Below the pieces are notes generated by a model that made no database searches, had not been told where the DNA came from, and saw only the letters and a list, made by a program, of their open reading frames with translations. This document shows, piece after piece, positions 6,521 to 51,752 of a stretch of DNA of 64,000 nt. Within the stretch, counting starts at the first letter, position 1. Every line of letters begins with the position of its first letter. The DNA is taken from the NCBI RefSeq assembly GCF_004010195.1, contig NC_057718.1, positions 91,265,916 to 91,329,915 of the forward strand, in the 5' to 3' direction. The translations under genes were made by a program, and so were the position numbers. The DNA comes from Chiloscyllium plagiosum. Lineage: Eukaryota.

Positions 6521-8775
6521 GTAAGTGAATTTTAAATACTTTTCTGAATCAGTATTATTTTTTTCTTATTCATTCATGGCAGGTGAATGTAGCTGGCTGG
6601 GTCAGCATTTATTGCACATGCTTGCGGTTTTCCGAAACACTTAGGCTACATCATAATACATCTTGTATGAAGATTTTGTACTGACCTGTCCAAGCTACAA
6701 GAATTGCATGGTTTTTGTCCTGCTCTCATAACACACTCACTGCCTATCTTAAAAGCAAAATACGAAGACTAATCTTCATCCTGAAAGGTGAATTGACATC
6801 ACATCAAACAATCTATAAATAATTGAGTTAAAGCTGAATACAGTATCAAATCCATTCAGATCTCTTTGGGCCTTTGGGAAAAAAACCCGTGCTTGGCCCA
6901 AATGGAATAAAGTAGATTTAAAAGCGAATTTTTTCTTCCCAAAGGACCTGAACTCAGTACGTCTGCAGGTCCACTTTCAAAAGGATATTCAGCTTCTGGA
7001 TGTGTGGATAAAGGATACATGACCCTGTAATAGAATAATTTGAGGTGTGTCTCAAATTTGTTTTCTGTCCATGATGGCTTCAATTTTAATCTTTGAGATA
7101 GGTTACAGAAATTGGGAAAATACCTGACTTTCCTTACCCTCCTCAGTAGAAAGTGCATGCAAAGATATGATCATCATTGCCAGTCAGTCATTGGGTGCAG
7201 CACTAAGTCAGGTCAGCTGACCTGGGAAGCAGGGTTGGCAGGTGCCAAGGCAGACCGTTCCAAAGGCTTGTTTTGATATTGTGAGAGTTATTCCAGTTAC
7301 AATGAAACATTAAGGCCCTGAAGCCTTTCTGTTCCACATTCCTGTTCATGTCCCAAACAGACCTCAAGCCCCATTCCTGCCACCTCATACTTCTGTATCA
7401 GGTTATAACCCTCCACTCCACTCATTTTCCCTATGCCAAGCAATGGCACTTCCATTCACTGTACACTGTATAGAACCAATAAGCCCACAGTGACATTAGA
7501 GTCTGTAAAATACCTGCAAGATTGTCAATTATTCATTCCTTTTCAGCACGTTAAAATAAAAACATCATTTTATTCCAGGTCAATAAAAGTATCAATCCAT
7601 CCATAGAGTTTACGGCATCACTAATAAAGAATGTAAACTCCTGAAATCTCTGAACCTTGATAAATTAACATTGGCATTTGACAGCAGAGTTTAGAATGCT
7701 AGAACAGTCAAGCAATTTTTGCCCTTGGTTCAGGCGTTTCTACAAAATAATGGATTTCTGGGCTCTTGATCAAGCCTCATTATATTTTAAGGGTAGATCA
7801 GAGAACAGGGTTAAAATAAACTAGGACAGCAGGTGCAGATGCTGTTGTAAACCCCAAATCACCTCTGAAAAATCAATCATGGAGCTGACCAATTAGAAAA
7901 GGCTTGAACCCTGCATACATGGGACAGATGAATTCTGGGAAACCTGCTCCTCTAATCAGAAAATGCCCAAACCTTATCAGGGTCTGAGTGACATGGCAAT
8001 GGTGAGATTTATGGTAGAATCAGATAATCAGTATAATGTGGCTCAATGTTGGGAGTATCTCAGCTTTGACTGGCAGAATGGCAAATTTCTCACTAGGCAG
8101 CAATTTCCAATTAAGGGAGATTATTACTTGATAAATGTAATGTCAGCAGTCCAATATACCTCATTAATATGCAGGTTCCTTTCAATCTAAATGCATTAAA
8201 CAAGCTAGACATCAAGAAAACTCAACTTGGAAATCAGAATGGCTACCTGGCAAATTCAACTTGCCACTTACTCCAAGGATCTACGTGTTGAACACAGCAG
8301 CAATATCTGAGGGCATGCTGTATGAACCCTGGCCAACACACCCCATGTCCACATGCATTGGTATCTGATATGTGCCAGCATCCAAGAACATTCATGTCAC
8401 TTACAGTGTGCATCAACACCAATGCTGCACCTCAGGGTGCAATGACAACTATCATTATAATGCTACAGCAAAAACACTGTGCTCAGAGACACACGCCTGG
8501 CTCATGGACTGGACATGGCTGGATCTCTGGGCTCTTCACTCACTGTTAGTAGTGCTTACTCACTGAGCTTATCTAGATGCTGACACCAGTCCTGCCTTGC
8601 ATCACCTTACCTTTTTGCATTTTGCCACTCAGCCAGGGACACTAAGTTCACACTGCTGCTATATTGCTGTACGATTCAGCACAGGAAGCTTGTCATGGTT
8701 GTCAGCAGGCCTCAGTCAGGTCAAAAGGGATAAGCTTCTGAAATAACTACACAGAGGCAGGTATCCCATCACTAA

Positions 8776-8811
8776 GGCCCTGGCCCTGGCCCTGGCCCTG
8801 GCCCTGGCCCT
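8776..8811. repeat. (GGCCCT)6 hexamer microsatellite inside the LTR 3' part
   Basis: Six perfect units read directly. Confidence 0.95.
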
Positions 8812-8880
8812 GGCTATGGCTATCCTGCAGCTCAGAGTCAGTCACCTGAACTAAGGAGAGTTTCATTTTATGGTTATATA

Positions 8881-10461
8881 TTTTTTTCTTTTTTTTGTTA
8901 CAGATGTTGTGCTTATTTTTCCCCAGCACCCATGTCATGTGTTTGCAGGTGTCAGACACAGTGAAAAACAACAAGTGTGTAGATCTTTATTTATATTCCA
9001 CCACCAGGAAGAAAGGAAAATCTTCTGGTTATATACTTTTTTATTTTTTTTTGCGGTAATGCTTATTTTTTTCCCCAGCACCTATGTTATGCGTGTGCAA
9101 GTGTGAGACGCAGTGAGAGACACAAGGTGCACAAATCTTTATTCAGTTTCCACCACCAGGAAGAAAAGAAGTACCCAAGTGGCCAGTGAAAGCAGTGCCC
9201 TTGACATCAAAGGGCAATGCTGTGTGATCAAACAGTGAAGGGGAGGTCAGGGATTAAATCAAAATCTTCTGGTTATATTTTTTTGAGCATTTCAGCGATG
9301 GAGAGAGCTGCTGGATAAGCTCGGGGTGTTTTCTTTGGAAGAGGGAAGATTGAGGGGGAACCTGATAGAGGGGCAGAAGATGATGAGGGTTAAAATCAAA
9401 ATAGAATTGGAGGGGGAAATAATGCACTCCACTCCCTATGGAGAACACTTCTCTCTGAAAATGAGATTGTGATTTTTTTTCTTTTTTGTTGAAACCTCCT
9501 AACCCACCTAACTGCAGTAGTGTTTATATTTTCCCCAGCATCCATTTTGTGTGTACACAGGTGTGAGACACCATTAAATTATATATTTTTTTCACACACT
9601 GGTCCAGCTCCCTCAAGAGCTCTGTGTGAACAGAATGTCTGACAGTCCTGTTCCTTTTGTTTCACCCCCCACACTACCACCTAACTGCTGTCGCTTATTT
9701 ATTCCCCAGCACCCATGTTGTGTGTGTGCAGGTGTGAGACACTGTTAAATTATCTTTTTTTTCTTTTGAGGTTTTTAAGAAAATCAAAAAGGGAGTGCAA
9801 ACGCCCACACCCAATATATACATGGTCCACGGAACTCCTAGTTATATTTTTTTTTTTTTTCTTTTATAATTTAACCCCCACACTACCACCTAAGTGCGGT
9901 AGTGCTTGTTTTTTTCCCAGCACCCATGGGAGACAATGAGAGACACAAGGTGCACGAATCTTTATTCAGTTTCCACCACCAGGAAGAAAAGAAACACCCA
10001 AGTGGCCAGTGACAAGCAGTGCCCTTGACATCAAAGGGCAGTGCTGTGTGATCAAAACAGTGAAGGGGAGGGGAGGGACTAAATCAAAATAGAGTTGGAC
10101 TCTCCCCTCTTTTTTTTTTGGAAAACACCCAGGTGGCCAGTGACAAACACTGCCCTTCACATCAAGGGGCAGTGAACTTCTGGTTTTATTTTTCTCTTTT
10201 TTTTCTTCTTTCTTTTTTTTTCTTTTTTTTTTCTTTTATAATTTAACCCCCACACTACCACCTAAGTGCGGTAGTGCTTGTTTTTTTCCCAGCACCCATG
10301 GGAGACAATGAGAGACACAAGGTGCACGAATCTTTATTCAGTTTCCACCACCAGGAAGAAAAGAAACACCCGGGTGGCCAGTGACAAGCAGTGCCCTTGA
10401 CATCAAAGGGCAATGCTGTGTGAGCAGACAGTGAAGGGGAGGGCAGGGATTAAATCAAAAT
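8881..10461 (-). mobile_element. Head-to-tail array of ~8 5'-truncated, poly(A)-tailed 3' ends of a Tx1-clade (L1-like) non-LTR retrotransposon
   Basis: Repeated ~250-nt 3'UTR with AATAAA, two hairpins and A-tails. 9391-9459 (minus) translates FREKCSP*GVECIISPSNSILI, resembling Tx1-type ORF2 C-termini (recognition, not a search). Confidence 0.72.
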
Positions 10462-10641
10462 CTTCTGGTTATATTAGTCAGCCAGGGCTTTCCTAATTGG
10501 CCCAGGTTAACAACCTCAATCAATATCCACATAGACAATGAGGTGAACCTGATTCCAATCATTACAGCTTCGATCAGGTAATCCCAACACTGTAAGTCAA
10601 GGACAGCCTCTAACAACAGTCGAGAGGATTGGAAGCCATCA

Positions 10642-10985
10642 TAGAATCCCCACAATATGGAAACAGGCCATTTGGCTCAACAAGTCCACACCGACCGTCT
10701 AAAGAGTAATCCACCCAGATCCATTCCCCCACCCAATATTTACCCCTGACTAACGCACCTAACCTACACATCCCTGAACACTATGCACAATTTAACATGG
10801 CCAATTCACCTAACTTGCACATCTTTGGATTGTGGGAGGAAACCAGAGCACCCAGATGAAACCCAAGGAGACACGGGGAGAATGTGCAAATTCCATGCAG
10901 ACAGTCACCCAAGGCGGGAATCAAACCCAGCTCCCTGGCACTGTGAGGCATCAGTGCTAACCACTGAGCCACTTTGCTGCCATCA
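10642..10985 (-). mobile_element. HE1/V-SINE, full length
   Basis: Reverse complement of head, V-domain and GGCCTGTTTCCA tail; matches the other copies. Confidence 0.92.
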
Positions 10986-11224
10986 GTCAACCACTCAAGA
11001 CCAAAAGTCAGGATGCACTCCACAATAGTGGTGAGGAATCAAATGTCAGCGGGTCATCATCAGTCTTGACTCTTTCTGCTCTTCTGGAATGACAAGAGGC
11101 AGAGTTTGGGGGAGATTAAGCTGTTACTTTCCATGCAGGTGGGGAGGCATCTCAGGGGTTGATTATGGTGTGTAGAGTGCATGCAGGGTTAGTGATGTCA
11201 GGAGTTGGAATGGACATGAGTGAG

Positions 11225-20939: not shown

Positions 20940-21790
20940 TCAGGACTTATACACTTAATGATAAGGTCCGAGGGAGTGTTGCTGAACAAAGAGACCTTGG
21001 AGTGCAGGTTCATAGCTCCTTGAAAGTGGAGTCGCACGTAGATAGGATAGTGAAGAAGGCGTTTGGTATGCTTTCTTTTATTGGTCAGAGTATTGAGTAC
21101 AGGAGTTGGGAGGTCATGTTGTGGCTGTACAGGACATTGGTTAGGCCACTGTTGGAATATTGCATGCAGTTCTGGTCTCCTTCCTATCGGAAAGATGTTG
21201 TGAAACCTGAAAGGGTTCAGAAAAGATTTACAGAGATGTTGCCAGGGTTGGAGGATTTGAGCTAAAGGGAGATGCTGAACAGGCTGGGGCTGTTTTCCCT
21301 GGAGTGTCGGAGGCTGAGGGGTGACCTTATAGAGGTTTACAAAATTATGTTAAAAATCACACAACACCAGGTTATAGTCCAACAGGTTTAATTGGAAGCA
21401 CGCTAGCTTTCGGAGCGTCGCTCCTTCGTCAGGTGATTGTGGAGGGCTCGATCGTAACACAGAATTTATAGCAAAAATTTGCAGTGAACTGAAATTATAC
21501 ATTGAAGAATTGATTGTCTGTTAAGCCTTTCATCTGTTAGAATACAGTGATAGTTTTATACTTTTTCACACAGAGGGTGGTATGTGGATGGAATGAGCTG
21601 CCAGAGGATGTGGTGGAGGCAGGAACTATTGTAACATTTAAGAGGCATTTGGATGGGTATATGAATAGGAAGGGTTTGGAGGGATGTGAGCCAGGTGCTG
21701 GCAGGTGAGACTAGATTGGGTTGGGATATCTGGTTGGCATGGACGGGTTGGACTGGTGGGTCTGTTTCCGTGCTGTACATCTCTATGATT
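20940..21790 (+). mobile_element. CR1 3' fragment inserted into the RTE
   Basis: EQRDLGVQVHSSLK, LYRTLVRPLLEYCMQFWSP, ERVQKRFT. Tail gtttccgtgctgtacatctctatgattct. Confidence 0.92.
21349..21556 (-). mobile_element. PLE family 2 terminal fragment inside CR1, with hammerhead core at 21401-21435
   Basis: Reverse complement of 26020-26195. Reads CTGACGAA-GGAGC-GAC-GCTCC-GAAAGCTA. Confidence 0.8.
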
Positions 21791-46259: not shown

Positions 46260-48413
46260 ATTCTTGCTAGGGATTGCCTATTAAAACTCATCACCCTCAT
46301 TAAAACTCGACCTACTCTTGGGAAATAAGGCAGGGCATGTGACTGAGTGACTGTGTCAATTGAAGAGCACTTCGGGGCCAACGACCATAATTCTATTAGT
46401 TTTAAAACAGTGATAGAAAAGGATAGACTAGATCTAAAAGTTGAAGTTCTAAATTGGAGGAAGGCTAATTTTGACACTTAATAGGCAAGAACTTCCAAAA
46501 GCTGATTGGGGGCAGATGTTCACAGGTAAAGGAATGACTGGAAATGGGAAGCCTTCAAAAATGAGATAATGAGAGTATATTCCTGTTAGGGTGAAAGGAA
46601 AGGCTGGTAGGTATAGGTAATGCTGATTGACTAGAGAAATTGAAGTTTTATTTCAGAAAATGAAGGAAGCATATGTCAGGTATAGACAGCAGAGATCGAG
46701 TGAATCCTTAGATTATAAAGGCAGTAGGAGTATACTTAAGAGGGAAATCAGAAGGGCAAAAAGGAGAAATGAGATAGCTTTGGCAAATACAGTTAAGGAG
46801 AATCCAAAGGAATTTTATAAATACGTTAAGGACAAAAGGGTAACTAGGGAGAGAATAGGGCCTCTCAAAGATCAGCAAGACAGCCTATGTGTGGAACCGC
46901 AGGAGATGGGGGAGATACTGAGTAATTTGCATCAATGTTTACTGTTGAGAAGGATATGGAAGATATAGAATATGGGGAAATAGATGGTGACATCTGAAAA
47001 AATGTCTATATTATAGAGGAGGAGGTGCTGGATGTCATGAAACGCATAAAAATGCATAAATCCCCAGGACCTGATCAGGTGTACCCTAGACCTCTGTGGG
47101 AAGCTAGGGAAGTGTTTGCTGGGCCCCTTGCTTAGATATTTGTATCATGGATAGACACAGGTGAGGTGCCAGAAGACTGGAGGTTGGCTAACGTAGTGCC
47201 ATTATTTAAGACAGGTGGTAAGGAAAAGCCAGGGAACTATAGACCGGTGAGCCTGACATTAGTGGTGGGCAAGTTGTTGGAGGGAATCCTGAAGGACTGG
47301 ATTTACATGTATTTGGAAAGGCAAAAACTGATTAGGCATAATCAACATGGCTTTGTGCATGGAAAATCATGTCTCACGAACTTGATTGAGTTTTTTAAAG
47401 AAGCAACAAAGAGGATTGCTGAGGGCAGAGTAGTAGATGTAATCTATATAGACTTCAGTAAGGCATTCGACAAGGTTCCTCTTGGGAATCTGGTTAGCAA
47501 GTCCAGATCTCATGGAATATGGGGAGGAGTAGCCATTTGCATACAGAACTGGCATGAAAGGAGAAGACAGAGGGTGGTGGTGGAGGGTTTCTTTTCAACT
47601 GGAGGCCTGTGACCAGTGGTGTGCCACAAGGATCAATGCTGGTCCAGTGCTTTTCATCATTTATATAAATGATTTGGATGTGAACATAGAGATATAGTTA
47701 GTAAGTTTGCAGATGACACCAACATCGGAGGTGTAGTGGATAGCAAAGAAGGTTACCTCAGAGTATAATGGGATCTTGATCAGGAGGGCCAATGGGTTGA
47801 GGAGTGGCAGATGGAGTTTAATTTAGATAACTGTGAGGTGCTGCAGAGCAGGGCTTATACACTTAATGCTAAGGCCCTGGGGAGTGTTGCTGAACAAAGA
47901 GACCTTGGAGTGCATGTTCATAGTTCCTTGAAAGTAGAGTCGCCAGTAGATAGGATAGTGAAAAAGGCATTTGGTATGCTTTCCTTTATTGATCAGAGCA
48001 TTGAGTATAGGAGTTGCGAGGTTGTGTTACGGTTTTACAGGACATTGGTTAGGCCACTTTTGGAATAAACCCATCTGATTCACTTATGTCTTTTAGGGAA
48101 GGAAATTTGCCATCCTTACCCAGTCTGGCCTACTTGTGCTTACAGACCCATGGAAATGTGGTTGACTCTCAACTGCTCTCTGGGCAATAAAGATTGGGCA
48201 ATAAATGCTGCCGAAGCCAGCGACACCCACATCAAGTGTATGAATAAAGAAATATTGCGTGCAATTCTGGTCTCCTTCATATTGGAAGAATGTTGTGAAA
48301 CTTGAAAAGGTTCAGAAAAGGTTTATGTGGATGTTGCAGGGTGGGAAGATTTGAGCTATAGGGCGAGGCTGTATCGGCTGGTACTGTTTTTCTTAAAGTG
48401 TCGGTGACTGAGG
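46260..48413 (+). mobile_element. CR1 ORF2 fragment (endonuclease end through RT), 3'-truncated and SINE-interrupted
   Basis: NDHNSI, KSPGPD, PEDWRLANVVPLFK, NYRPVSLT, DFSKAFDKVP, KFADDT. Confidence 0.93.
48068..48250 (+). mobile_element. 5'-truncated SINE sharing its 3' tail with the CR1/L2-group LINE
   Basis: Splits the CR1 at GGAATA|TTGCG with AATA duplicated. Ends GGGCAATAAATGCTG...GCCAGCGACACCCACATC...GAATAAAG. Confidence 0.72.
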
Positions 48414-49164: not shown

Positions 49165-51752
49165 TTGCACCGCACAGCAATCAACAGACAGGAGTGTTCC
49201 CTCCCAATCAGAGAACACTTCAGCAGTCTGGGACATTGACTTTTGGGTGACCGTCCTCCAAGGTGGACTTTGGGACAGGCAACAACACAAAGTGGCCGAG
49301 CAGAGGCTGTTAGCCAAGTTCGGTACCCATGGGGTTCATGTCACACTACAGGTGACCCCACTACACTATACTCTCTCTCTCACTCTCACACACACTCCTA
49401 CAGACCTATACACTCACACAGACCCTCTCTCATATGCTCACACATACACACACACTCACACCTACACGCGCACCATCTCACAGACTTATACCCCTTTACA
49501 CTCACACACTCTCTCACAGACACTCATACCCCTACCCATATACACACACCCACATGCACACACACGCATAAAGGTTTGTGGGGTGAATTTATATTTATTT
49601 TGCTCAAAAACTGCATGAATCCATGTAAGATCGTGTAAATCCCTTTTTTAGAAGTAGAATCAGTCTGAACATTGGGGCATAGACACCCTCACATGGGGAT
49701 TAGATCAGAATGGTACTGGAAAAGCAAAGCAGGTCAGGCAGCAATAGGTGAATGGGGGTGGGGATGGAGGTGATGGGTCAGAGGAGAGGGTGAAGCAGAT
49801 AGGTGGAAAGGGAGATTCGTAGATCGGACAGGTCATGTGGACAGTGCTGAGCTGGAAGGTTGGAACTGGGGGAAGGTGGAGGGAACAGAAATGAGGAAAC
49901 TGGTGAAGTGCGCTTTGGTGCCCTGGGGTTGAAGTGTTCCAAGGCGGAAGATGAGGCGTGCTTCCACCAGGCATCGAGTGGTGAGGAAGCGGCGGTGGAG
50001 GAGGCCCAGGACCTGCATGTCCTCGGCAGAGTGGGAGGGGGAGTTGAAATGTTGGGCCACTGGGCGGTGTGGTTGATTGGTGCGGGTGTCCTGGAGATGT
50101 TCCCTGAAGCGCTCTGCGAGGAGGTGTCCAGTCTCCCCAATGTAGAGGAGACTGCATCGGGAGCAACGGATACAATAAATGACATTGGTGGATGTGCAGG
50201 TGAAATTCGTTTGGCTGAACTGGTCCTCACCCTTAACAATTTCTCCTTCAAATCCTCCCACTTCCTCCAGACCAAAGGGGTAGCCATGGGCACCCGTATG
50301 GGCCCCAGCTATACCTGTCTCTTTGTCGTCTACGTTTCCACACCGTAAGTAATCTAATCTAATATACCTAGATTACACCTCTTCCCACCCCACCTCCTGC
50401 AAAAATGCCATCCCATATTCCCAATTCCTCTGCCTCTTCCATTTCTGCTCCCAGGAGGACCAGTTCAACCACAGAACACACCAGATGGCCTTCTTCTTTA
50501 GAGATCGCAATTTCCCTTCTCACGTGGTTGAAGATGCCCTCCAACGCGTCTCATCTCATCACCCGCACCTCTGCCCTCAAACCCCACCCTTCCAACCGTA
50601 ACAAGGACAGAACCCCCCCGGTCCTCACTTTCCACCCTACCAAACTTCGCATTAACCATATCATCCGCCGACATTTCCGCCACCATCAAACGGACCCCAC
50701 CACCAGGGATATATTTCCCTCCCCACCCCTTTCCATTTTCCGCAAAAACCGTTCCCTCCGTGATTACCTGGTCAGGTCCACGCCCCCCAAAAAACCACCC
50801 GCCCGTCCTAACACCCTCCCCTGCCACCGCAGGAATTACAGTCTGCGCTCACACCTTTTCCCTCAGCACCATCCAAGGCCCCAAAGGAGCCTTCCACATT
50901 CATCAAAGTTCCACCTGCACATCCACCAATGTCATTTATTGTATCCGTTGCTCCCGATGCGGTCTCCTTTACATTGGGGAGACTGGACGCCTCCTCGCAG
51001 AGCGCTTCAGGGAACATCTCCAGGACACCCGCACTAATCAACCACACCCTCCCACTCTGCCGAGGACATGCAGGTCCTGGGCCTCCTCCACCGCCGCTCC
51101 CTCACCACCCGATGCCTGGAGGAAGAACGCTTCATCTTCCACCTCAGAACACTTCAACCCCAGGGCATTAAAGTGGACTTCACCAGTTTCCTCATTTCCA
51201 CTCCTGCCATCTTACCCCAGTTCCAACCTTCCAGCTCAGCACTGTCCTCATGACNNNNNNNCTCTATTCTTGATGAAGGGCTTTTGCCCAAAATGTCGAT
51301 TTTCCTGCTCCTCAGATGCTGCCTGACCTGCTGTGCTTTTCCAGCACCAATCTGATCTAAACTCTGGTTTGCAGCATCTGCAGTCCTCACTTTTGCCTAC
51401 CCTCACATGGGTCACCTCATACTTTCATTGCATTATCTGGGCTAACATGTCACCTATTGTTAAAGTTCACTTGAGAATATAACTTTCTAAAAGAATTCTG
51501 GGATTTATATATGAAAGAATTGAAACCAACATGGTCATTCGAAAAGATGAGAGACTTACCAAGTAATCCAGGTGTTTTTCAATATATAATTTCAGTTGCA
51601 TCACACTGTAAACCCTTGCTATACATTCTATGTCTTAGAATCTTATACCCTACAACCACCTGATGAAGGAGCAGTGCTCCAAAAGCTATGCTTCCAAATA
51701 AACCTGTTGGACTATAACCTGGTGTTGTGTGATTTTTAACTTTGTACATCCC
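49165..51752 (+). mobile_element. PLE family 2: GIY-YIG C-terminus, CA-rich tract (~49370-49570) and terminal region, split by the family-1 insertion
   Basis: LPIREHFSSLGH and VTVLQGGLWDRQQHKVAEQRLLAKFGTH. Resumes at 51412 and ends with CTGATGAAGGAGCAGTGCTCCAAAAGCTA...GGTGTTGTGTGATTTTTAAC. Confidence 0.8.
49698..51398 (+). mobile_element. PLE family 1: inverted GIY-YIG/terminal copy (49698-~50203, minus) followed by RT fragment, GIY-YIG and pLTR (plus)
   Basis: LNNFSF...QTKGVAMGTRMGPSY, LDYTSSHP...NAIPYSQF, NVIYCIRCSRCGLLYIGETGRLLAERFREH. 13-bp TSD ACCCTCACATGGG; N-run at 51255-51261. Confidence 0.92.

Follow-up and report, generated by a model that had tools for sequence, protein, structure and literature searches.

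The Tx1 clade is counted among the target-specific clades of long interspersed elements (LINEs) (PMC4640811). Tx1L of Xenopus laevis (YTX2_XENLA) has the transposon Tx1D as its target and an endonuclease with a recognition site of about 10 bp (PMC1919474). The crocodilian families Tx1-8_Crp and Tx1-4_AMi prefer retrotransposons with long terminal repeats (LTRs), and the same account describes tandem inserts around the target-site duplication (TSD), a passenger short interspersed element (SINE) named SINEU, and a proposed transcription from the target (PMC4494074). Aimed insertion by Tx1 elements, including insertion into LTR retrotransposons, is already known. The main text on the crocodilian families gives no site in the LTR, no link to a TATA box, no LTR-derived head and no array polarity. 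Here we describe a 64,000-nt stretch of the genome of the shark Chiloscyllium plagiosum (contig NC_057718.1; the whole stretch is referred to as the window), in which nine pieces of a Tx1L-like LINE sit within a solo LTR (8739-10566, minus strand), all on the strand of the LTR, and interrupt it at the TATA motif. This array is probably the footprint of an abundant LINE of the Tx1L lineage that prefers the TATA position of short retrotransposon LTRs.

The shark LINE resembles Tx1L in its reverse transcriptase (RT) clade, in its combination of an APE-type endonuclease with an RT, and in its use of one site in another mobile element. It differs in having an LTR TATA target instead of a DNA transposon, in its deep arrays of truncated copies, and in its LTR-derived head. 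A parallel for the arrays is R1 of Drosophila, which has a 14-bp TSD and whose arrays gain new copies at the TSD in front of the residents' 5′ end (PMC2718515). R1 transcripts carry flanking target sequence, the complementary DNA (cDNA) anneals to the target at 5′ junctions, and off-target copies occur (PMC2718515, PMC5932611); tandems by double insertion are described as general (PMC5932611). In these accounts R1 is like the shark arrays in that the youngest copy stands at the 5′ end of the residents. Unlike the shark LINE, it belongs to the R1 clade, targets 28S ribosomal DNA and depends on the ribosomal DNA unit; it is described as annealing to the upstream target, and its tandems as having distinct truncations, not shared ones.

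In R2Bm, 27 nt of target sequence stand at the 5′ end of the RNA, the 5′ junction is made by strand invasion, and the element is co-transcribed from the target promoter (PMC6895275). The target sequence kept at the 5′ end recalls the heads of the shark LINE, whereas the restriction-like endonuclease and the ribozyme-processed 5′ end of R2Bm set it apart; neither a ribozyme nor any other Rfam family was found in three shark loci (L049, L146 and L091; labels of this form denote other loci or contigs fetched from this genome). The telomeric elements HeT-A and TART of Drosophila form head-to-tail arrays in which the upstream sequence serves as promoter and buffers 5′ erosion, and TART has repeated non-terminal segments (PMC5537684). 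As described, they have no sequence target, and their promoter is their own 3′ untranslated region (3′UTR), not a foreign LTR. A supposed likeness to the terminal modules of Dictyostelium TRE5-A found no support in passages of PMC5633606 and was dropped. No account of targeting to the TATA box of an LTR, of an LTR-derived LINE head or of shared truncation points was found in the full-text literature, a scope outside which lie Repbase Reports and most subscription journals. An earlier note on the window, made from its sequence alone, knew of no description of this target; this may stand for the site, which the main text of PMC4494074 does not give, and falls for the preference as such, since LTR-preferring Tx1 families are known.

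Insertion at the TATA position of an LTR

Coordinates are window positions throughout, and the solo LTR, the array units and the motif copies lie on the minus strand. The LTR has its TG end at 10566 and its CA end at 8739, with GCTTC flanking it on both sides, and is interrupted directly behind ATATAACCAGAAG (10462-10474), which has the CCAAT box (10496-10500) about 22 nt upstream of it. With up to two mismatches, ATATAACCAGAAG has nine matches in the window, six of them at array positions on the minus strand: those at 9022, 9266 and 10462 are exact, that at 10177 has one mismatch, and those at 8867 and 9835 have two. The nine matches compare with 2.49 +/- 1.59 expected, and 0 of 100 shuffles reached nine. 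Clean unit junctions have the motif in front of them in 82 of 134 cases, as against 3 of 75 A-runs elsewhere in the window.

Uninterrupted LTR copies (8 of the 29 copies compared) carry the motif once, and at four loci (L063, L088, L090 and L142) a locus-specific variant of the motif is repeated on both sides of the insert. Because local variants flank the inserts on both sides, the motif is a target duplication and not a part of the element; off-target inserts, moreover, have other duplications. This agrees with the proposal of the earlier note that the motif is a TSD that renews the target, and it goes against the possibility, raised there too, that the motif belongs to the element. We are close to certain that the LINE is targeted to the TATA position of the LTR with duplication of the site.

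The genome-wide samples behind this statement are best-scoring matches from a gapped assembly and no census. The 29 other LTR copies (subfamily LTR-A) were chosen by U3 sequence with a query that contained the motif; by our reading, 21 of them carry an insert immediately behind the motif, always at this position and in a single orientation, and 8 are uninterrupted. In 15 measured copies the insert starts 10-21 nt (median 14) past the start of the motif. The word TATAA[A/C] is kept in 19 of the 21 filled copies and in 3 of the 8 empty ones (Fisher p 0.008, post hoc; p = 0.02 after removal of one duplicate). From the other side, a genome search with the 3′UTR gave 1981 first-look candidates, of which 40 were scored; the 30 loci fetched, less three duplicates, leave 27 with the window locus included. 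A sense-strand LTR adjoins the array in 20 of these 27, against a background of one LTR in the 64-kb window, with U3 upstream in 9 and R-U5 downstream in 19; three of the LTR matches are 40-56-nt R pieces that may be cargo. The flanks are thus not heterogeneous in the way that would have spoken against a target. Two related LTR subfamilies, LTR-A and LTR-B, serve as targets.

The target LTR family

The window LTR belongs to LTR-A, of which LTR-B is the sister subfamily. Among 11 uninterrupted LTRs, 6 have an initiator-like (Inr-like) site at a distance of 26 to 29 nt past the motif, and 10 have a poly(A) signal at 71 to 86 nt. The motif fits a TATA box because both stand at the expected distances. 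LTR-B precedes gag-like, protease-like and RT-like frames: its gag neighbour matches Retrotrans_gag clusters at 0.97, the gag look-alikes include Ty3_capsid clusters, and the protease and RT matches are weak and below the cut-off. No copy of LTR-A was seen joined to an internal region. The TG..CA ends, the 5-bp TSD, the order CCAAT-TATA-Inr-poly(A) and the link of LTR-B to gag together identify the repeat as the LTR of an LTR retrotransposon, which we take, from motif likeness, to be a likely Gypsy element of the Mag-like type.

The LINE and its relatives

Long copies of the LINE measure about 6.5-7.4 kb and have the same end of open reading frame 2 (ORF2) upstream of their tails; the start of ORF1 and ORF2 were mapped in them, and poly(A) tails, 5′ truncation and TSDs are present. 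None of the copies examined has both frames unbroken. The ORF2 of L057 matches PF03372 (APE-type endonuclease) at 25.4 bits (cut-off 24.5) and PF00078 (RT) at 111.7 bits; a zf-RVT match of 23.6 bits stays below its cut-off of 27.5, and ORF1 fragments gave no Pfam match. The best relative of ORF2 among solved structures is L1 ORF2p, and the closest named relative is the ORF2 of Xenopus Tx1L, with 52% identity over 95% of the length.

In an RT tree, three copies of the shark LINE form a 12-row clade with Tx1L and proteins of turtle, tortoise, sturgeon and stingray at 100/100 support. The tree has 35 rows, namely the three copies and 32 of 82 homologues (34 were offered, of which two were too short); it is midpoint-rooted with no L1 outgroup, and its rows do not include Tx1-8_Crp, Tx1-4_AMi or Tx1-Mar. 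Neither Tx1-8_Crp nor Tx1-4_AMi is among the named matches of ORF2. The phylogeny suggested in the earlier note thereby bears out the assignment to the Tx1 clade made there. The 5′UTR is GC-rich and 500-950 nt long. As a whole, the 3′UTR folds no better than shuffled sequences (z -1.5), and its centroid structure has two local hairpins.

Growth of the arrays and shared 5′ truncation points

With identity to the nearest copies elsewhere as a proxy for age, the promoter-proximal unit is younger than the last unit in 30 of 39 arrays (sign test p 0.001), and by pairs of units the age order favours the youngest near U3 by 74 to 22. The arrays very probably grow at their promoter end.

Units within an array often start at the same base. 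Pairs with the same start make up 50 of 185 within a locus and 208 of 8726 across loci, and shared starts occur in 22 of 33 arrays, a result never reached in 5000 permutations. Identity between such units is 94% over the first 50 nt and falls to the background level of 89-91% farther in. Likewise, rare variants are shared in 32 of 122 cases in the first 50 nt and in 3 of 163 at 250-450 nt (control about 1%). In L081, for example, six rare variants within the first 63 nt are common to three units whose 3′ halves differ. The tails of units differ in length and make-up. Duplication of whole units does not explain the shared starts, because the shared variants fade away from the 5′ junction, and the local tandem duplication that the earlier note had named as a possible refutation is not borne out as the main cause. 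We infer that, beyond the nick, the incoming cDNA pairs with the copy already in place, so that the 5′ end of this resident is duplicated together with the motif. Homology-guided joining of the 5′ end is, on this pattern, the likely course.

Heads of long copies

The first nine heads found were all preceded by a copy of the end of ORF2 and the first half of the 3′UTR. Such an own-3′-end head was seen in 16 of 30 loci picked by ORF1 (4 of the 16 being repeats of earlier loci), the remaining loci being gapped, short, truncated or of another head type. The own-3′-end segment halts about 20-35 nt ahead of the AATAAA of the 3′UTR and is fused to a relic of the LTR R region that has lost its poly(A) signal; 14 of the 16 leaders have no AATAAA or ATTAAA up to ORF1. 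A second head type consists of LTR sequence itself: among 23 long copies, 7 run unbroken from motif through initiator and R into the 5′UTR, 15 have the own-3′-end head and 1 is truncated. These 23 copies were found with one LTR-headed query, so that the set is biased by the query and gives no family frequency.

Some heads repeat the DNA downstream of the insert. In L183, 38 of 38 nt of local LTR sequence are repeated at head and tail, and in L178 head and downstream DNA are identical at 48 of 49 nt; in L177, L180, L182 and L058 the duplication is partial or unclear, and two 3′ ends were not reached. For the own-3′-end type, head and downstream DNA of L184 are identical at 69 of 70 nt, with shared rare variants and a following resident with the same start. 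In L189, too, a resident with the same start follows the copy. No resident follows L185 and L194, which show a simple duplication; the own-3′-end segment therefore also travels in the RNA. Both head types place ORF1 behind an intact CCAAT-TATA promoter, and they offer the cDNA a handle for empty and for filled targets.

Own-3′-end heads start at reference positions 667-673 in the unlinked loci L041, L185, L191, L102 and L130, a common start that is possibly the RNA start of one source copy. A different head type stands before the same 5′UTR and ORF1 in L120 (933-1030) and L121 (940-1030). In L186 (oriented, 6611-7560) and L166 (near 573-1500), ORF2 and the first half of the 3′UTR lead into the head of the next copy, forming a dimer with a common repeated segment, as LTR elements share an LTR. 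An RNA cleavage site marked by pieces that end near the head junction was considered and rejected, as only 7 of 128 3′ ends fit.

Whether the LTR promoter drives the LINE, as the earlier note supposed it could, is supported by structure, in that heads carry LTR R sequence, and we lean slightly towards this view. A single-cell RNA run (about 2/100 of it) gave 615 reads, 586 of which lie only partly on the stretch, and they represent sense-strand element RNA from other copies. They are not evidence of activity or of promoter use, because oligo-dT priming on genomic A tails would give the same picture. No RNA data set was listed as containing the stretch itself.

Read-through, cargo and passenger RNAs

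A piece of genomic flank unrelated to the LINE, at 9285-9389, has been 3′-transduced into the window array. In L005 this flank follows a complete R-U5 of LTR-B, and in L092 an uninterrupted LTR-B stands before a flank 92% identical to it; a source copy therefore lay within an LTR, and its transcription ran through that LTR. The same strings of motif plus junction recur at unlinked loci (L041, L050, L051 and L090; L056 and L084), so that array units are carried along in read-through as well. Foreign motifs and an LTR fragment at 9593-9652, which comprises TATA and R of LTR-B followed by an A tail, are explained by such read-through transcripts.

A second A-tailed family, young (95-97% alike) and with 2282 first-look candidates, uses the same target (L121:270-595; L140-L152 near 1500-1830; L120:590-915; L104; L055 near 8050-8240). 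Its body is GC-rich and repeated and has no match to the LINE references. Of 13 copies, nine have the motif at their end with an LTR or array next to it, and four show clean off-target duplications. Together with the LINE, this family resembles the SINEU/Tx1-Mar pairing of crocodilians. In L133 (oriented, 1262-1400), an mRNA-like piece of 130 nt with poly(A) signal and A tail stands at the motif of an LTR-B, between duplicated motif copies; it is a cellular RNA carried to the same site.

Organization and reliability of the window array

Read from the promoter outwards, the right TSD copy of the solo LTR (GCTTC, 10567-10571) is followed by the 5′ part of the LTR (U3, 10462-10566) with its TG end, CCAAT box and TATA-like motif. 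Unit 1 (10190-10461) is a 3′UTR from the ORF2 stop to a long A-rich tail, and a motif copy of the local AGAAG variant (10177-10189) separates it from unit 2 (10100-10176), a short internal 3′UTR piece with an A10 tail and then a non-local motif; this unit occurs in L005 too. Unit 3 (9848-10099) is a chimera of an L005-like 5′ part and a unit-1-like 3′ part. It is followed by a motif copy of a non-local type (TAGGAG, 9835-9847) and by unit 4 (9768-9838), an internal ORF2 fragment (SVDHVYIGCGRLHSLFDFLKNL) with an A tail. The block at 9390-9762 holds three LINE pieces (9666-9742, 9492-9571 and 9393-9459), the last encoding the ORF2 C-terminus FREKCSP*GVECIISPSNSILI, and encloses the LTR-B fragment described above. 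Beyond the transduced flank come an exact local motif (9266-9278), a unit with the same start base as unit 1 that stops early in the terminal hairpin before its A tail (9035-9265), a further exact motif (9022-9034) and the most distal and most diverged unit (8880-9021; 76% to the reference copy), which is probably the first insertion of the array. The 3′ part of the LTR (R-U5, 8739-8879) begins with the diverged motif copy at 8867-8879 and runs to its CA end and the left TSD copy (GCTTC, 8734-8738). Within its R region, at 8776-8812, a six-base unit is expanded about sixfold, which is not seen in the uninterrupted LTR copies compared.

Much of what the earlier note had read from the letters is confirmed: the solo LTR with both ends and both GCTTC copies, all six minus-strand motif copies at zero to two mismatches, the ORF2-like C-terminus, the (A)TTTT shared by 5′ junctions (AGAAG-ATTTT at 10461, 9265 and 9021), and the restriction of the 3′UTR family to the array, there being no other clear match in the 64 kb and one weak match (70% over 90 nt) at 21248. 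The note's account implied five pieces, where nine LINE pieces were found. Four junctions within 9460-10120 have other motifs or none. The deletion that the note saw in two copies sits in chimeric unit 3.

That unit belongs to a part of the window that is less secure. The segment 9853-10100 has 0 mismatches to its L005 counterpart over the first 165 nt and 0 mismatches to the unit at 10230-10461 over the last ~146 nt, so that the chimera reflects either an assembly join or a very recent exchange. L005, a small contig that gives a second assembled version of this locus, agrees with the window in both outer parts of the array and differs in between, where four more units begin at the junction base of the window. 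The block at 9390-9762 is absent from L005 and matches arrays on two small contigs at 94-98%. Of the public contigs, none runs across the whole array: one follows 9250-9389 and then departs from the window sequence, and a second, with a depth about fivefold that of single-copy DNA, corresponds to 9412-9718. In three DNA runs, single-copy contigs agree with the ends and flanks of the LTR. Contigs of a related organism (B) end at window positions 10486 and 8711. The region of about 9390-9950 is thus an allele or an assembly join and may be misassembled; we incline to the view that the middle block alone is mis-joined. Both the shared deletion and the motif at 9835 lie within this insecure block, and our conclusions rest on the genome-wide samples, not on the middle block of this locus.

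Elsewhere in the window, a very abundant SINE-like repeat (by read depth) lies beside the LTR at about 10650-10990 and may be akin to the tRNA-derived SINEs of sharks. An RT fragment (PF00078) at 47136-47612 on the plus strand and frames bearing GIY-YIG (PF01541) at 49705-51326 belong to ordinary retroelement repeats.

Proposed mechanism

Target-primed reverse transcription (TPRT) is the established insertion route for LINEs. In the model we propose, the endonuclease would nick the TATA motif on its bottom strand, with reverse transcription then priming on the poly(A) tail; the junctions give the position of the nick, and the enzyme step is borrowed from TPRT. The top strand would be opened about 14 nt downstream, which would leave the observed duplication of the motif and renew the target. 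The next insertion would enter the promoter-proximal copy of the motif, in keeping with the statistical excess of young units beside U3. The cDNA would often anneal to the DNA immediately beyond the nick and thereby form the new 5′ end, as the pattern of shared starts suggests. In a filled LTR the annealing partner would be the tail of a resident LINE, giving shared truncation points, and in an empty LTR it would be the R region of the LTR itself, giving the duplications of 38-49 nt. Long copies would accordingly start with LTR R, or with their own 3′ end fused to an R relic and short of the poly(A) signal. ORF1 would thereby come to lie behind the CCAAT-TATA(-Inr) promoter of the LTR, an arrangement seen in the copies, and this promoter could drive the element. 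Transcripts would often read past the tail into downstream units, LTR and flank, as the transduced piece at 9285-9389 exemplifies.

A further reading, which we put forward tentatively and to which we give somewhat less than even credence, is that the LINE has no promoter of its own and that its RNA would start at the LTR initiator with about 30 nt of R. The cDNA would pair with the R of the target and rebuild the order TATA-Inr-ORF1. The own-3′-end head would have arisen later, for targets filled with tails; it would pair with the tail of the resident and act as a one-sided terminal repeat. In most copies of the LTR family, truncated copies would part the TATA box from the initiator, making the LINE a hyperparasite that silences or redirects LTRs.

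Alternative explanations

Several observations weigh against the model. No LTR adjoins the array in 7 of the 27 loci picked by 3′UTR or in 14 of the 20 picked by RT (6 of 20 have one; many loci of the RT-picked set are gapped or have arrays running off the stretch, and that set is mostly uninformative for flanks). Clean off-target duplications occur at L011, L013 and L004 and, for the passenger family, at L143, L150, L151 and L152, and 4 of 7 LTRs picked through their gag neighbour are uninterrupted. The site specificity claimed in the earlier note has accordingly to be narrowed: as far as these sequences tell, there is a strong preference (20 of 27 loci) that is not absolute. As to the joining of 5′ ends, variants are shared far from the junction in L080, L007 and L022, where there is some duplication, or longer tracts, as well. 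A clear long duplication is present in 2 of the 6 LTR-R-headed copies with a visible 3′ end, and the 5′ R piece of L058 differs from the first 3′ copy. Only 4 of 11 own-3′-end-headed copies are informative, 2 of them with a matching resident, and the head of L145 fits duplication of DNA and origin from RNA alike (95.8% vs 95.6%). As to the promoter, the GC-rich 5′UTR could hold one of its own, and no RNA start site was seen in the single-cell RNA run. A four-unit array in L004 (oriented, 90-1790) stands at a TATA-like site that has no adjacent LTR match; arrays can grow off-target too, perhaps at a host promoter or that of another element.

The off-target duplications all begin with TA(T)AA or with TAAT- or TAG-like words, the motif tolerates many variants, and an unrelated passenger family and an mRNA-like fragment enter the same site. 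Together with the seven loci lacking an adjacent LTR, these features would suit a loose, L1-like preference for TAAA, with open or machinery-bound LTR TATA boxes as mere hot spots, a LINE with its own promoter, and an LTR-like head that is the relic of an old insertion; the R relic is indeed short, and 2 and 12 of 1000 shuffles align to it as well. We consider this explanation unlikely, since inserts enter 21 of 29 LTR copies at a single position with the same orientation, TATAA[A/C] persists in 19 of the 21 filled copies and in 3 of the 8 empty ones, and 7 of 23 long copies have TATA, R and 5′UTR unbroken, two with exact long duplications. If one or two insertions had given rise to most of each array through local tandem duplication, unequal exchange or gene conversion, this would account for the shared starts in 22 of 33 arrays, the multi-unit repeats in L099/L100, the dimers joined through the repeated 3′-end segment in L186 and L166, and the chimeric unit 3 of the window. 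However, same-start units have an identity of 0.94 over their first 50 nt and the background value of 0.89-0.90 farther on, the sharing of rare variants falls from 26% to 2%, tails vary in length and make-up, age is ordered along the arrays, and unrelated RNAs enter the same arrays, all of which makes this origin improbable.

It is more improbable still that the window array is an artefact stitched together from the repeats of several loci. The different middle of L005, the two-part unit 3, the match of 9390-9762 to two small contigs, and public contigs that diverge after 9389, run at about fivefold depth or fail to span the array are what such stitching would leave, but the window and L005 agree in holding an array within this LTR and in the local motif, four additional units of L005 share the start base, and single-copy contigs in three DNA runs match the LTR ends and flanks. 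We attach hardly any weight to the remaining alternative, that there is no targeting and the motif is the element's own 3′ end, or that a single filled LTR multiplied as a whole. Motifs do travel from source loci in read-through (L041, L050, L051 and L090; L056 and L084), yet uninterrupted LTRs (8 of 29) hold the motif once, first junctions differ among filled copies, locus variants flank both sides, and off-target inserts show other duplications.

Implications

Insertion by a LINE of the Tx1L lineage at the TATA position of LTRs would add to the known Tx1 systems the exact site, the LTR TATA box, a head derived from the R region of the target, and ordered arrays that record 5′ junctions. Second-strand synthesis of APE-type LINEs is described as poorly understood (PMC6895275). 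Many arrays in this one genome keep dated 5′ junctions with diagnostic variants, so that annealing of cDNA to target would become countable. A vertebrate LINE that prefers an RNA polymerase II site and carries unrelated RNAs to it would be relevant to RNA-templated insertion, and its occupancy of LTR promoters would bear on the conflict between mobile elements.

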